Source: Escherichia phage BEU50. Taken from it: a DNA stretch of 64,000 nt. The DNA is taken from the sequence record OM632671.1. One strand, written 5' to 3'. This document shows, piece by piece, positions 19,864-31,178 of the stretch. A model generated the notes under the pieces. The model saw nothing but the letters and a program-made list of their open reading frames with translations, was not told the origin of the DNA and did not search any database. Numbering within the stretch: position 1 is the stretch's first letter; every line of letters begins with the position of its first letter. The position numbers were made by a program, and so were the translations under genes.

Positions 19864-20119
19864 AGTGTACGGGTATGACTCTACTATTCACCGTTGTGTT
19901 TTCTGTGATAATGCGAAAAGATTGCTGACTGTTAAGAAACAGCCATTCGAATTCATTAATGTTATGCCAGAAAAAGGTGTGTTCGATGATGAGAAAATTG
20001 CTGAGCTTCTGGTTAAGCTTGGTCGTGAATCACAAGTCGGATTGACTATGCCTCAAGTGTTTGCTCCTGACGGAAGTCACATTGGTGGATTTGACCAACT
20101 GCGAGAATATTTTAAATGA
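19856..20119 (+). CDS. nrdC: glutaredoxin/thioredoxin NrdC
   Basis: MFKVYGYDS..CVFCDNAKRLL matches T4 NrdC; start moved to ATG 19856. Confidence 0.9.
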   Translation: MFKVYGYDSTIHRCVFCDNAKRLLTVKKQPFEFINVMPEKGVFDDEKIAELLVKLGRESQVGLTMPQVFAPDGSHIGGFDQLREYFK

Positions 20120-20451
20120 ACAATATTGATTTCGCCAAAGCATATAAATTTGTAGCAACTCTTCTCGGCCCTGACGCTCCTACTAAGCTTGAAGTTTTAA
20201 ATTTGATTCCGACTTCATTGGTTCGAGATGCTGAAATATGGACATGGGACGACCCAGCTGTTTGTGAAGACCTGTACATTCTGATGAATGACATGATGGT
20301 TAAAAAGCCTGAAACAATGGTTACTATTACTGTTGAAGAATATAATCGCCTACAAGCCATCGAAGAGCTTCTGTGGAATGTTGAATCTGATTTGCCGTCC
20401 GGACTAGAATCCTGGATTGATTATGAAGAGCTCGATAAGCTCCGCGGTTAA
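20116..20451 (+). CDS. hypothetical protein (111 aa)
   Basis: ATGA overlap with nrdC. Confidence 0.5.
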   Translation: MNNIDFAKAYKFVATLLGPDAPTKLEVLNLIPTSLVRDAEIWTWDDPAVCEDLYILMNDMMVKKPETMVTITVEEYNRLQAIEELLWNVESDLPSGLESWIDYEELDKLRG

Positions 20452-20579
20452 ACCGTGGTATTCGGCTCGATGGGAGACAGTCGAGCCAGACGTCGAAACA
20501 GTTTACAACGACGAAGAAACGTGTTATGATGAACCTTCAATAAATGAATTAATTAATATGGAAATGGGAAGAGATTATT

Positions 20580-20750
20580 ATGCAAGTTAAATTATTGTAC
20601 CGTTTATTAAAAAATGGCAAGCATGATTGGTATTTGCTTATTAAAACCGATCCGAATTTTTTCTCCGGACAACCATTTACAGTTCGTCCTACTAAACGTC
20701 AGCTTCGCAAAGCTAAACGTTCTCATCGTAACTTTTATAACGTTTACTAA
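20580..20750 (+). CDS. small basic protein (56 aa)
   Basis: Below ORF-track cutoff; Lys/Arg-rich. Confidence 0.3.
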   Translation: MQVKLLYRLLKNGKHDWYLLIKTDPNFFSGQPFTVRPTKRQLRKAKRSHRNFYNVY

Positions 20751-20759
20751 ATAATAAAT

Positions 20760-20787
20760 ACCCTTATCTATTTAAGGTAAGGGTTTT
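20760..20787 (+). promoter_or_regulatory. hairpin immediately 5' of the gene 49 start
   Basis: ACCCTTA...TAAGGGT stem followed by TTTT and ATG 20791. Confidence 0.4.
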
Positions 20788-20790
20788 ATC

Positions 20791-21262
20791 ATGTTATTAT
20801 CAGGCAAAATATAAAGAAGAAAAACAAAAATTTTATGATGCACAGAATGGTAAGTGTCCTATTTGCCACCGTGAATTAGACCCTGATGTTCAAGGTAACC
20901 ATCTTGACCACGACCACGAATTAAACGGGCCAAAAGCCGGTAGAGTTCGTGGATTACTCTGTAATCTGTGCAACGCAGCAGAAGGTCAAATGAAGCATAA
21001 GTTCAACCGTTCCGGTCTTAAAGGACGTGATGTTGACTACCTCGAATGGCTTGAAGCTCTTCTTGCTTATTTGAAACAAGATTATTCTTATAATAATATC
21101 CATCCTAATTTTGTTCCAGACAAAACTAAAGAGTTCTCAAGACTAGGTAAAGAGGAAATGATGGCTGAGATGCTTCAAAGAGGATTTGAATATAATGAAT
21201 CTGACACCAAAACACAGTTAATAGCTTCATTTAAGAAGCAACTTAGAAAGAGTTTAAAATGA
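20791..21262 (+). pseudogene. 49: endonuclease VII (gene 49) homologue with disrupted 5' reading frame
   Basis: ATG 20791 gives MLLSGKI then TAA at 20812; the homologous frame (YKEEKQKFYDAQNGKC...HLDHDHELNG...) runs 20807..21262 with no ATG before 20990. Confidence 0.6.
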
Positions 21263-23076
21263 CAATTGAAAAAGAAATTGAAGGATTGATTCATAAAACT
21301 AATAAAGACCTTTTAAACGAGAATGCTAATAAAGATTCTCGTGTTTTTCCAACTCAACGGGACCTTATGGCTGGTATTGTGTCTAAACACATTGCCAAAA
21401 ATATGGTCCCGTCTTTTATTATGAAAGCGCATGAAAGCGGAATTATCCATTTCCACGATATTGATTATTCCCCTGCTCTTCCATTTACTAATTGCTGTTT
21501 AGTAGATTTAAAAGGAATGCTTGAGAACGGGTTTAAGCTCGGTAATGCACAGATTGAAACTCCTAAATCAATCGGTGTTGCTACTGCAATTATGGCACAA
21601 ATTACTGCACAAGTTGCTTCACACCAGTATGGCGGAACGACTTTTGCTAATGTAGATAAAGTACTTTCTCCTTATGTTAAACGCACCTATGCAAAACATA
21701 TTGAGGATGCAGAAAAATGGCAAATCGCTGATGCGTTGAATTATGCTCAATCCAAAACAGAAAAAGATGTCTATGACGCATTCCAAGCTTATGAATATGA
21801 AGTAAACACTCTCTTTAGTTCAAACGGACAAACGCCTTTTGTAACAATTACATTTGGTACGGGAACTGACTGGACTGAACGAATGATTCAGAAAGCAATT
21901 CTGAAAAATCGTATTAAAGGTCTTGGTCGTGATGGGATAACTCCTATTTTCCCTAAGCTTGTTATGTTCATTGAAGAAGGTGTTAATCTTTATAAAGACG
22001 ATCCGAACTATGATATTAAGCAGCTTGCGTTAGAATGTGCAAGCAAAAGAATGTATCCTGACATTATTTCGGTTAAGAATAATAAAGCTATTACCGGTTC
22101 ATCTGTTCCTGTTTCTCCAATGGGTTGCCGTAGTTTCTTGAGTGTATGGAAAGATTCAACCGGTAATGAAATTCTTGATGGTCGCAATAATCTTGGTGTT
22201 GTAACATTGAATCTTCCTCGCATCGCGTTAGATTCTTATATTGGAACGCAATTTAACGAACAGAAATTTGTTGAATTATTCAATGAACGAATGGATTTAT
22301 GTTTTGAAGCTTTGATGTGTAGAATTAGTTCCTTAAAAGGAGTTAAAGCGACTGTTGCTCCTATTCTTTACCAAGAAGGTGCATTCGGGGTTCGTCTTAA
22401 ACCTGATGACGATATAATTGAGTTATTTAAAAATGGTAGAAGTTCAGTGTCCCTAGGATACATTGGTATTCACGAATTGAATATTCTTGTCGGTCGTGAT
22501 ATTGGACAAGAAATTTTAACTAAAATGAATGCTCATCTTAAACAGTGGACTGAAAGAACTGGATTTGCTTTTAGTTTATATTCGACTCCTGCTGAAAACC
22601 TTTGTTATCGCTTCTGTAAACTTGATACAGAAAAATATGGAAGTGTAAAAGATGTTACCGATAAAGGCTGGTACACTAACAGTTTCCACGTTTCAGTAGA
22701 AGAAAATATTACTCCGTTTGAAAAGATTTCTCGTGAAGCGCCATATCATTTCATTGCGACAGGTGGTCACATTTCTTATGTTGAACTTCCTGATATGAAA
22801 AATAACTTAAAGGGTCTTGAGGCCGTATGGGATTATGCTGCACAACATTTAGATTATTTTGGTGTTAATATGCCAGTAGATAAATGTTTTACATGCGGAA
22901 GTACCCATGAAATGACTCCTACTGAAAACGGATTTGTTTGTTCTATTTGTGGAGAAACTGATCCTAAAAAGATGAATACCATAAGAAGAACATGCGGCTA
23001 TCTTGGAACTCCTAGCGTTGTTCCATGGAATTTAGGTAAAATGAAAGAAATGGTAAAACGAGTAAAACATGCATAG
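21259..23076 (+). CDS. nrdD: anaerobic ribonucleoside-triphosphate reductase
   Basis: 605 aa; C-terminal Zn-ribbon cysteines and glycyl-radical motif RRTCGYLG. Confidence 0.95.
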   Translation: MTIEKEIEGLIHKTNKDLLNENANKDSRVFPTQRDLMAGIVSKHIAKNMVPSFIMKAHESGIIHFHDIDYSPALPFTNCCLVDLKGMLENGFKLGNAQIETPKSIGVATAIMAQITAQVASHQYGGTTFANVDKVLSPYVKRTYAKHIEDAEKWQIADALNYAQSKTEKDVYDAFQAYEYEVNTLFSSNGQTPFVTITFGTGTDWTERMIQKAILKNRIKGLGRDGITPIFPKLVMFIEEGVNLYKDDPNYDIKQLALECASKRMYPDIISVKNNKAITGSSVPVSPMGCRSFLSVWKDSTGNEILDGRNNLGVVTLNLPRIALDSYIGTQFNEQKFVELFNERMDLCFEALMCRISSLKGVKATVAPILYQEGAFGVRLKPDDDIIELFKNGRSSVSLGYIGIHELNILVGRDIGQEILTKMNAHLKQWTERTGFAFSLYSTPAENLCYRFCKLDTEKYGSVKDVTDKGWYTNSFHVSVEENITPFEKISREAPYHFIATGGHISYVELPDMKNNLKGLEAVWDYAAQHLDYFGVNMPVDKCFTCGSTHEMTPTENGFVCSICGETDPKKMNTIRRTCGYLGTPSVVPWNLGKMKEMVKRVKHA

Positions 23077-23088
23077 GGTTAAACACCA

Positions 23089-23721
23089 ATGAATTATGAC
23101 AGAATCTATTCAAATCTAGTTAATTCTGCTGAACACCCATCTAAGCCCCGTCAAACTAAAGCCGGGTATGAACTTCATCATATAATTCCAAGAAGCATGG
23201 GTGGTCCAGATGATTTAGACAACTTAGTATTTTTAACTTATAAGGCCCACTATACTGCTCACCATTTATTGGCTAAAATATATGGTGGAAAGATGTATGA
23301 TGCATATTGGATAATGAGTAATAGTAAGCATAGAAAAGTTACTTCTTCACAATACGCGTATGCAAAAGCTAAGAAATTTGAAAATCAGCGTGGCGCAAAA
23401 AGAAGCGATAAAACTAAGAAGCTAATGAGCATAGCTAGGTCTAAAGTAACTCTTCCTGATGATTTTGGAAAAAGGATATCTGATGGGCTAACAGGAAGAA
23501 CTTTGTCTACTAGTCATAAAGAGCATATCAAAAATAGTTCTAGAAATCGCTTTAACACCAAAACGGTTATTGGCTATTCACCAGACGGAAATACAATAGA
23601 ACTAACTGGAGCAACTGAAATAAGAAATGCAGGATTTTTTCATTCTGCTGTTTATAAATGTTGCAAAGGAATTCAATCTATTCATAAGGGATATACTTGG
23701 AAATATAAAGATGAATTATGA
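23089..23721 (+). CDS. HNH homing endonuclease
   Basis: MNYDRIY N-terminus; HHIIPRSMGGPDDLDNLVFLTYKAH motif; lies between nrdD and nrdG. Confidence 0.8.
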   Translation: MNYDRIYSNLVNSAEHPSKPRQTKAGYELHHIIPRSMGGPDDLDNLVFLTYKAHYTAHHLLAKIYGGKMYDAYWIMSNSKHRKVTSSQYAYAKAKKFENQRGAKRSDKTKKLMSIARSKVTLPDDFGKRISDGLTGRTLSTSHKEHIKNSSRNRFNTKTVIGYSPDGNTIELTGATEIRNAGFFHSAVYKCCKGIQSIHKGYTWKYKDEL

Positions 23722-24181
23722 TAGAATATACCCGTGCTGCTTTGTTAATGGTCCTGGATGCAGGGTCGTTCTCTTCGTCACTGGATGTTTGCATAAATGC
23801 GAAGGTTGTTATAATCGTAGTACTTGGAATGCTCGTAACGGACAGTTATTCACTATGAATACCGTTAAAGAACTTGCGTCCCATTTAAGCAAATCGTATA
23901 TCCAAGGCCTTACCTTAACCGGTGGTGACCCACTTTATCCACAGAACCGAGAAGAGATTTCAAATTTAGTTTCTTGGGTTAAAGCAAGATTTCCGGAGAA
24001 AGATATCTGGTTGTGGACAGGATATAAGTTTGAAGATATTAAACAGCTAGAAATGCTTAAATATGTTGATGTTATTATTGATGGGAAGTATGAGAAAAAT
24101 CTTCCGACTAAAAAGCTGTGGCGAGGATCAGATAATCAGCGACTTTGGTCAAATACCGATGGGGTGTGGAAACATGATTAA
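23711..24181 (+). CDS. nrdG: anaerobic ribonucleotide reductase activating protein (radical SAM)
   Basis: MNYDRIYPCCFVNGPGCR and CLHKCEGC (CxxxCxxC); ORF-track start 23627 is an upstream extension. Confidence 0.9.
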   Translation: MNYDRIYPCCFVNGPGCRVVLFVTGCLHKCEGCYNRSTWNARNGQLFTMNTVKELASHLSKSYIQGLTLTGGDPLYPQNREEISNLVSWVKARFPEKDIWLWTGYKFEDIKQLEMLKYVDVIIDGKYEKNLPTKKLWRGSDNQRLWSNTDGVWKHD

Positions 24182-24291
24182 ATTGAATTACATTATGGAT
24201 ACTATAAATGATATGATTTTTCGTTTTGGTCCAGAATTTTATTCGCAATATAGTTTAGTGCTTATCAATGCTTAGTTAATTAAGGGTAAAT

Positions 24292-26058: not shown

Positions 26059-26093
26059 ACGATAGGAAGACATGTTATTATCTTTCCTATCGT
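26059..26093 (+). promoter_or_regulatory. promoter-like element inside an 11-bp imperfect inverted repeat
   Basis: ACGATAGGAAGA...TCTTTCCTATCGT flanking CATGTTATTA. Confidence 0.4.
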
Positions 26094-26113: not shown

Positions 26114-26353
26114 GTGGCCCAAGAATTAGATTTTATCAAATTCAAAAAACACCTCGACGTTAAAATTGGGGATTCAATTGTTAGGATTGAGTATGACATT
26201 TTAACAGATGCTATTACTGTTAGTTGTGATGGAAATAGTTTCAGCTTCGATACAACCGAAAACAAGTACCCAATCTATAAAGGCATCTTTGATATGGGTG
26301 TTGATATTACTCCACGTGATACAAATTACTTACTTTTCATGCTTAAAAAATAG
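26114..26353 (+). CDS. hypothetical protein (79 aa)
   Basis: GTG start after GAGGAAAA. Confidence 0.45.
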   Translation: MAQELDFIKFKKHLDVKIGDSIVRIEYDILTDAITVSCDGNSFSFDTTENKYPIYKGIFDMGVDITPRDTNYLLFMLKK

Positions 26354-30156: not shown

Positions 30157-30327
30157 ATAGCAAACATTGATTATACCGAAGAAGATTCTAGATATGTTGG
30201 AATAATTTATATTACATCAAAAACAGCACAAGGCGTTGTTTGCATGGCTGAATTTGATGAATACTTTTTAGATTATGATGATATGATAGAATGGTCTAAA
30301 AGATACATTAAAAGGAATCTTTTGTGA
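30121..30327 (+). CDS. hypothetical protein (about 68 aa)
   Basis: GTG start with AAGGA SD; N-terminus duplicated at the start of the downstream HNH gene. Confidence 0.4.
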   Translation: MKFSTFDINDEFIANIDYTEEDSRYVGIIYITSKTAQGVVCMAEFDEYFLDYDDMIEWSKRYIKRNLL

Positions 30328-30358
30328 AGAATTTTAAACTTGATATTAATGACGAATT
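30312..30358 (+). repeat. diverged direct repeat, copy B, at the start of the HNH gene
   Basis: Collinear with 30108..30156. Confidence 0.5.
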
Positions 30359-31178
30359 TTTAATAAAGGAATTAGTTGAAAAATTAGTGTTGAGCGAAGA
30401 AGACGCCAAGTCTTACATTAATTTTATTTCTATGAATTCAACTGTTAAAACTCCGGGTAAAACGGAAGCACATCACGTGCTTCCTAAATCAATATTTCCT
30501 GAATATTTAAAATCTACATGGAATTTAGTTAATTTAAGTCATTTTAATCATTTCAAAGCACATTTCTTATTAGCAAAAGGTAAAAATGGAAAAATGCTAA
30601 ATGCTTTAAATAGAATGATGTCAGGAAAAACATATAAAAATTTATCTTTAGCCGAAGTTGATTTAATAGCTGCTGAATATAGTTTTATAAGACAAGATGT
30701 AAGTGACACAATATCAAAAAGGCTTCAACAATATTATTCAAATCCGCAAAATAGAAATGCTGCTAGAGAAAGGGCATTAAAATATTTTTCAGTAGCAAAA
30801 AATAGGAAAGATAACAAAGAAAGATTAAATAATTTTAAAACAAAACAAAAAATTTCAATGGCTTCAAGGGAATGGTTTAATAACGAAGAAAATAAAATTA
30901 AACACCAAAAGGCTGTTCGTGCTGCTTTATCAAAACCTGAATATAAAATAGCTATATCAAATTCAGTAGCTGCTAGTTGGAAAAATCCGGAGATTAGAAA
31001 AGCTCATATAGCATCTCGACGAAAAGGCTATCATTGGGATAATAAAGATAAATTGTATGAATTGTGGATATCATATAATCGTCCTAAACATGTGATGTTT
31101 AGGAAAATGTTAGTTAAGAATGGATATCCAATAGAGGCTTCATTACAGGCTTTAGTTAAAGAATTTTCTTCATTGTGA
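30324..31178 (+). CDS. HNH homing endonuclease inserted between genes 47 and 46
   Basis: GTG start; AHHVLPKSIFPEY...LVNLSHFNHFKAH motif; Lys-rich NUMOD-like C-terminus. Confidence 0.75.
   Translation: MKNFKLDINDEFLIKELVEKLVLSEEDAKSYINFISMNSTVKTPGKTEAHHVLPKSIFPEYLKSTWNLVNLSHFNHFKAHFLLAKGKNGKMLNALNRMMSGKTYKNLSLAEVDLIAAEYSFIRQDVSDTISKRLQQYYSNPQNRNAARERALKYFSVAKNRKDNKERLNNFKTKQKISMASREWFNNEENKIKHQKAVRAALSKPEYKIAISNSVAASWKNPEIRKAHIASRRKGYHWDNKDKLYELWISYNRPKHVMFRKMLVKNGYPIEASLQALVKEFSSL

Follow-up and report, generated by a model that had tools for sequence, protein, structure and literature searches.

Gene 49 of Escherichia phage BEU50 (OM632671.1), the gene for endonuclease VII, is split between two reading frames by the absence of two nucleotides close to its start. 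Ribosomes that initiate at the AUG at 20791 terminate after seven codons, and the rest of the protein is encoded in the +1 frame. At the break, the sequence combines the short states of two natural gene 49 alleles, one carried by RB69-like phages (Mosigvirus) and one by T4-type phages. Our preferred reading, to which we give about even chances, is that the frame break is a real, recent and lineage-private 2-nt loss at the junction of these two alleles. Positions below refer to the window, the 64,000-nucleotide stretch of DNA that we analysed.

The split reading frame of gene 49 and its leader

Three features define the state of the coding sequence:
20791–20814, plus strand: truncated frame from the authentic gene 49 start; product MLLSGKI, then TAA
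20810–21262, plus strand: gene 49 body in the +1 frame, endonuclease VII residues 8–157; DNA 100% identical to that of phage a20
20990–21262, plus strand: internal ORF of 90 aa, with GAAGG 5 nt before its ATG; dimerisation domain only

The start codon (ATG, 20791–20793) is followed by TTA TTA TCA GGC AAA ATA and the stop codon TAA (20812–20814), just as a sequence-only reading of this DNA had described. That reading also had the adjacent frame running open to 21262 with no ATG before 20990, and both our translation and the ORF listing agree. Translated from 20810 to 21262, the body reads YKEEKQKFYDAQNGKCPICHRE...QLRKSLK* and is stop-free inside. A search upstream of 20810 for an in-frame start in the body frame found none. 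The frame is open from 20777, but only through the codons GTA AGG GTT TTA TCA TGT TAT TAT CAG GCA AAA, none of them a start, so the body has no start codon upstream. Past the upstream stop, the earliest ATG, GTG or TTG of the +1 frame is the ATG at 20990. By Pfam search, the 90-aa ORF that opens there is without the zinc-binding and catalytic region, and an exact-protein look-up of this truncated product gave no record anywhere.

The body belongs to a broken gene 49 and is not chance ORF noise, as its matches to Pfam and to T4 structures indicate. The 20810–21259 translation matches PF02945 (Endonuclease_7; E = 1.3e-19) and PF09124 (Endonuc-dimeris; E = 1.2e-32), and it aligns end to end over residues 8–157 with the T4 endonuclease VII structures 1E7D, 1EN7, 1E7L, 2QNC and 2QNF (E = 6e-91). 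These matches bear out the sequence-only assignment of the gene to endonuclease VII gene 49. The body has the two-domain architecture of the family, a His-Me finger zinc-binding N-terminal domain and a C-terminal dimerisation domain, and the gene occupies its conserved place between the pin/DUF7279 genes and nrdD. The window departs from the family in one respect: relatives encode 157 aa in an uninterrupted ORF of ~157 codons from the conserved ATG, and here that ORF stops after seven.

The full-length 18-kDa enzyme would consequently not be produced at normal levels. At most, a 90-aa dimerisation-domain fragment of ~10.5 kDa may start at AUG 20990. Active enzyme would have to come either from a rare, unprogrammed +1 slip of the lysine tRNA on GGC-AAA-A, with MLLSGK-YKEEKQ... 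as its product, or from a co-infecting phage acting in trans.

Comparison with T4 gene 49 (NC_000866) places the defect in an otherwise familiar setting. The gene and its neighbourhood (DUF7279 or pin gene, gene 49, nrdD) are the same, the window body is ~90% identical to T4 gp49 over T4 residues 8–157, and both phages have an identical hairpin covering the Shine-Dalgarno sequence, abutted by an (A/T)ATAAATA late-promoter motif. The difference is that the window's full-length frame is broken at codon 6. T4 gene 49 presumably yields 18- and 12-kDa products, as two nested coding sequences in the T4 record suggest. The internal GTG start of T4 (codon 53, NP_049693) is GTT in the window (20945–20947), in a20 and in RB69, so the sole internal start here is ATG 20990 (codon 68 in T4 numbering). 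In RB69-like phages, any nested gene 49 product must accordingly start elsewhere than at the T4 site, for example at this ATG.

Upstream of the start codon lie three further features:
20753–20760, plus strand: late-promoter motif AATAAATA; a20 and RB69 have TATAAATA, while T4, NRG-P0074 and mobC-carrying T4-type phages have AATAAATA
20760–20784, plus strand: RNA hairpin with a 10-bp stem (ACCCUUAUCU/AGGUAAGGGU) and loop AUUUA; −12.5 kcal/mol, z ~ −3
20784–20787, plus strand: run of four T between the hairpin/Shine-Dalgarno and the ATG; a20, RB69 and T4 have three T

Judged by its sequence, the leader is a T4-type late-gene arrangement, in which a hairpin covers the ribosome-binding site and a predicted late promoter starts transcripts inside the 5' arm of that hairpin. 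The promoter motif spans −13 to −6, with A or T common at −13 in RB69-type phages (PMC1524935). Motif spacing from the same source predicts a late transcription start near 20766, within the 5' arm. The 3' arm holds the gene 49 Shine-Dalgarno sequence (AAGG at 20774–20777, AAGGG at 20779–20783), and the entire hairpin sequence is identical in T4, RB69 and a20. Translational repression through sequestration of the ribosome-binding site is credited to Barth 1988 in PMC2988022. The hairpin also scans as terminator-like and is annotated as a terminator in NRG-P0074. The sequence-only reading had correctly seen a hairpin directly upstream of the gene, though it had drawn it to 20787, three nucleotides beyond its end.

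Several smaller observations concern this leader. The A at 20753 lets AUAAUAA (20751–20757) pair with UUAUUAU (20794–20800, codons 2–3), which in long transcripts would enclose the hairpin and the AUG in an outer helix (minimum free energy −15.1 kcal/mol, vs −12.9 kcal/mol for a20). We considered and rejected a scenario of three hits on gene 49 in which the T-to-A change at 20753 kills the late promoter, since T4, NRG-P0074 and the mobC donors all read AATAAATA. The extra T is probably harmless: an RB69-type contig (L031, ENA ERZ28641811 scaffold_90, positions 1395–1415) has a 2-nt insertion, GGGTATTTATC, between its Shine-Dalgarno sequence and ATG together with an intact gene 49, which argues that spacer length is tolerant. 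Farther upstream, small ORFs at 20116–20750 lie in the 49.1–nrdC.1 neighbourhood. In T6, this region includes the OLD defence inhibitor Gp49.2 and is amplified under OLD pressure (PMC13096335).

Two natural alleles and a probable T4-type donor

The lesion itself is confined to 14 nucleotides:
20803–20816, plus strand: lesion GGCAAAATATAAAG; the RB69-type allele minus GC (20805/20806), equally the T4-type allele minus TT (20808/20809)

The backbone of the window is that of a Mosigvirus, 96–99.5% identical to RB69-like phages, with phage a20 as its nearest relative (98.7% over 24 kb). RB69-type relatives begin gene 49 with ATG TTA TTA TCA GGC GCA AAA TAT AAA and have the N-terminus MLLSGAKYKEEKQ; aligned, their codons 5–9 are GGC[GC]AAA[--]ATATAAAG (GGC GCA AAA TAT AAA, G-A-K-Y-K). 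The T4-type allele of contigs L009 and L012, with the N-terminus MLLTGKLYKEEKQ, is GGC[--]AAA[TT]ATATAAAG (GGC AAA TTA TAT AAA, G-K-L-Y-K). The sole difference between the two is a pair of compensating 2-nt indels, 3 nt apart, with zero mismatches between them. Relative to the RB69-type GGCGCAAAATATAAAG of its relatives, one of the two GC units in GCGC is missing from the window at 20805/20806; relative to the T4-type GGCAAATTATATAAAG of L009 and L012, it lacks TT at 20808/20809. Deleting GC from the a20 allele or TT from the L009/L012 allele yields the window's 14-mer exactly in each case. The window thus holds the short state at both indel sites, a net change of −2 nt that puts it out of frame.

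This comparison refines the sequence-only account. Its claim of a 2-nt deletion stands, as both allele comparisons give two missing nucleotides. The site it proposed, between GGCAAAA and TATAAA, lies near the TT gap when the T4-type allele is the reference, but against the RB69-type allele the gap is the GC at 20805/20806. The natural comparator is the RB69-type N-terminus, and not the T4 N-terminus alone. Slippage in the A-run is not the better description; a hybrid of RB69-type and T4-type states is. The recombination context, with its T4-type states at 20753 and 20784–20787 and the mobC tract downstream, was beyond the reach of that account.

The 5' end of gene 49 is naturally variable. Natural gp49 N-termini already differ at positions 3–7, and the indel pair that separates the RB69-type (L001/L004) from the T4-type (L009/L012) alleles at 20803–20816 implies an earlier compensated frameshift at that spot. 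In JK45, an RB69-like genome, the 5' end of gene 49 is T4-type and the body RB69-type, so exchange of allele types at this end of the gene occurs in nature.

Signs of such exchange surround the lesion. Between 19352 and 21428, apart from a difference at 20212, the window and a20 disagree at just three places, all of them around the start of gene 49: T to A at 20753, an added T at 20784–20787 and the loss of GC at 20805/20806. All three are states of a single T4-type allele, in that A at 20753, four T, and GGCAAA without the GC co-occur in contigs L009, L010 and L012. These contigs had been retrieved only because one of their encoded proteins matches the window's 210-aa HNH protein exactly. Three local differences that all match one allele are not expected from random errors or mutations. 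The four-T leader is the T4-type allele of SHFML-11, SHFML-26, BCPSen_003, a48, L009 and L012, and it is rare (6 records from 4 phages among 692). We also considered the three changes as a private cluster born of poor consensus and rejected this, two of the three being known allele states.

The same lineage carries a larger block of T4-type DNA a short distance downstream, as well as a second HNH-like ORF farther on:
21259–23076, plus strand: nrdD, intact, 605 aa; first ~170 bp (to ~21428) as in a20, 21430–22250 a patchwork of the parental types, 3' part T4-type
22999–24222, plus strand: central part of the imported T4-type tract; all 1,224 bp match BCPSen_003 with 0 mismatches, BCPShso_001 also identical
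23089–23721, plus strand: mobC, a free-standing HNH homing endonuclease gene, 210 aa; absent from a20
30324–31178: second HNH-like homing-endonuclease ORF, 284 aa, GTG start; upstream of gene 46, in the gene 47–46 interval

T4-like sequence reaches left to ~22260 and a20-type sequence resumes from ~24250, making a tract of ~2 kb; mobC sits inside it, 2.3 kb downstream of the gene 49 lesion. The gene shares 99.5% identity with the T4 copy and 100% with the copies in the Tequatroviruses BCPShso_001 and BCPSen_003, and it was found in 31 records only. Two of the four four-T phages, SHFML-11 and BCPSen_003, carry a mobC that is 99.8–100% identical to the window's. A homing endonuclease gene that is present in the window, absent from a20 and enclosed in a donor-identical tract is the configuration expected of co-conversion. 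Homing with co-conversion of flanks is known among T-even phages for the td intron, SegG and mobE (PMC2988022). The window resembles these cases in that mobC is central in a donor-identical tract with recipient-type flanks and ragged mosaic edges, and differs from them in that its gene 49 patch stands apart from the mobC tract.

The donor-identical tract with its a20-type flanks and the fine mosaicism of nrdD together indicate that recombination with such donors happened in this lineage. On the strength of these alignments, the lineage is a Mosigvirus with acquired T4-type DNA. A donor of this kind is also the most likely source of the T4-type states around the start of gene 49, and the patch they form may be linked to the mobC event across the intervening DNA. 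As to the second HNH-like ORF (30324–31178), it is absent in a20, is present and annotated in NRG-P0074, and had no Pfam match at E <= 0.01.

In our preferred reading, an a20-like Mosigvirus would have acquired T4-type DNA comprising mobC with ~2 kb of flanks, the patches in nrdD and the states at 20753 and 20784–20787, and the 2-nt loss would have arisen as the RB69-type and T4-type alleles recombined. Possible routes are a switch in the 3-nt AAA between the two indels, pairing on GCAAA out of register, or two small heteroduplex loops that were repaired separately.

Several findings weigh against a recombination junction. First, a20-type sites at 20790, 20799, 20800 and 20802 interleave with the donor-type states, so at least four switches would be needed within ~60 bp. 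Second, the patch lies ~620 bp from the nearest T4-type patch in nrdD, and the gene body between them, with >85 informative sites, is purely a20-type. Third, gp49 is described as essential in T4 (PMC2993671), where its main role is to clear DNA branches during packaging (PMC3016281). A search of the 64-kb window for a replacement resolvase found none, the window being collinear with a20 apart from the two HNH homing-endonuclease genes; a second nuclease that resolves junctions has been reported for RB16 and Aeromonas phage 65. We also looked for a suppressor-type change in uvsX (fdsA in T4 genetics) and found none; the window's UvsX is 100% identical to that of RB69. With gp49 essential and UvsX wild type, a null allele should be strongly counter-selected. 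Finally, the hybrid allele appears in no other record or contig examined, and the loss of a single unit from GCGC is also plausible as slippage or as a consensus error.

Alternative origins of the two-nucleotide loss

The alternative that survives best is a consensus artefact. Here the true gene 49 would be intact (GCGC or AAATTATAT; GGCGCAAAATAT or GGCAAATTATAT), and two bases would have been dropped in sequencing, polishing or consensus building, for instance by per-site calling on a mixed or heterogeneous sample. We regard this as a serious possibility, though less likely than the recombination reading. In its favour is the singularity of the lesion. Across several hundred related records, none exceeds 96.5% identity to the window's 91-nt gene 49 start, which means that the 2-nt loss is absent from all of them, as is the combination of states found in the window. 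The lesion is likewise absent from 10 further contigs that share the upstream gene, all of them with an intact 157-aa gene 49. Neither the exact lesion nor the combination TTTT+ATC had a match in IMG/VR, GTDB genomes or JGI metagenomes, and a search of other phages for reciprocal or similar hybrid gene 49 alleles found none. An error would also fit the absence of the truncated 90-aa product from the records, the zero decay of the gene 49 body relative to a20, the essential role of gp49 in T4 alongside a UvsX free of suppressor-type change, and the error-prone context of a dinucleotide repeat adjoining a hairpin.

The quality of the surrounding sequence argues the other way. Across the 64 kb, every indel against a20 that is not a multiple of three is either intergenic or compensated within a few bases, except the one in gene 49. 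Among 149 ORFs matched to a20 ORFs, one is truncated, and that one is gene 49 (157 to 90 aa). Random sequencing indels would mostly strike coding DNA, yet none is seen elsewhere in the ~150 ORFs, which points to a consensus of high quality with a very low error rate. Nor is the neighbourhood of the lesion a low-quality patch, the A at 20753 and the TTTT being genuine alleles of other phages. A mixture of alleles should also have flipped 20790, 20799–20802 and the 85+ informative sites of the gene body, and none is flipped. Since neither parental allele contains junction words such as CAGGCAAAATAT, a k-mer-graph assembler presumably could not have made them from two mixed phages. An error that copies half of a natural allele difference, beside genuine donor-type states, would be a coincidence.

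Independent de novo slippage, in which one GC was lost from the GCGC of the RB69-type allele in an event unrelated to the nearby recombination, is in our view quite unlikely. A change from (GC)2 to (GC)1 is a classic slipped-strand event, and both flanks of the deletion are of the RB69/a20 type (TCA GGC on the left, AAAATATAAAG on the right). Against this, the sole coding indel in 64 kb would by coincidence have fallen 18 nt from a rare donor-type indel and matched the donor state. The panel of four comparison genomes sharpens the point: the window has only three indels private to it, and two of them lie within 19 bp here. Recombination and slippage lead to the same sequence and are indistinguishable from sequence at this site. 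A search within the window for an ectopic template or quasi-palindrome behind the lesion found no second copy of the mutant 10–12-mers.

The sole other indel that separates the window from all four comparison genomes is an extra T at 26083–26085, in an intergenic T-run upstream of a 79-aa ORF (26114–26353). This ORF has a GTG start in the window and in NRG-P0074 and an ATG in a20; its protein is otherwise identical.

An evolved, programmed +1 frameshift at AAA-AUA-UAA that yields normal amounts of endonuclease VII is highly improbable, its features of a shift site being outweighed by a lack of conservation and of any dedicated stimulator. In +1 frameshifting of the prfB/Ty1 type, a P-site codon able to re-pair is followed by a slow codon or a stop. 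The window has a comparable series: an AAA-A on which the codon can re-pair, then a less common codon, then a stop. GGC-AAA-A (20803–20809) is the only plausible +1 slip site, where the lysine tRNA in the P site could move from AAA to the overlapping AAA with full pairing. Next in the 0 frame comes AUA, the Ile codon used least, followed by a stop; a weak Shine-Dalgarno-like AGG lies just upstream, and the shifted product would differ from the natural N-termini by being one residue shorter. Unlike in the prfB/Ty1 cases, however, this site arose from a private deletion in an otherwise intact gene and is not conserved: all relatives examined have an uninterrupted ORF, and none provided a second example. 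Downstream, the sequence is the same as in unshifted relatives, so no dedicated stimulator has evolved. The hairpin is a conserved element that covers the Shine-Dalgarno sequence upstream of the AUG, which is the wrong side to stimulate a frameshift. AUA, called rare in the sequence-only reading, occurs at 9.1 per 1000 codons (12% of Ile codons) and is not very rare, and relatives have a tRNA with a CAU anticodon. In-frame AAA-AUA is not avoided in the window's genes (10 observed vs 9.6 expected), and AAA-AUA-U occurs twice. The sequence-only reading had offered a sequencing error, a genuine mutation and a +1 shift, a reasonable set from which the first two still stand and the third is unsupported. 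Low-level unprogrammed slippage is another matter, and from the sequence GGC-AAA-A may permit it.

Implications for gene 49 and mobC

The gene, hairpin and promoter are the well-known T4 gene 49 arrangement, and the lesion is an ordinary private frameshift; nothing here is a new kind of element. Gene 49 of this phage should be flagged as frameshifted (a possible pseudogene or an error) and not annotated as expressed by ribosomal slippage.

Should the lesion prove real, it would illustrate from nature how fine-scale recombination between phage genera causes collateral damage close to a homing-endonuclease insertion, and it would help to gauge the amount of endonuclease VII that a T-even phage requires. 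We consider it unlikely that the window comes from a viable T-even phage that lives with a real lesion on trace endonuclease VII, made by unprogrammed +1 slippage, or on none. Were this so, the "essential" packaging resolvase would be needed in very small amounts only, or could be bypassed.

The two alleles also recall hybrid incompatibility through compensated frameshifts, in which a recombinant that inherits one half of a +2/−2 pair is non-functional. Gene 49 fits in having two functional alleles that differ by a +2/−2 indel pair. It differs in that the window's indels lie only 3 nt apart, in a single genome. If the lesion is real and the phage viable, compensated-frameshift alleles would form a small hybrid-incompatibility barrier between Mosigvirus and Tequatrovirus.

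The mobC tract is of interest in its own right. Table 1 of PMC2988022 lists the activity and target of MobC as not determined, and the tract is a natural homing product for this endonuclease. Its position brackets a possible MobC cleavage site at the 3' end of nrdD or the 5' end of nrdG.
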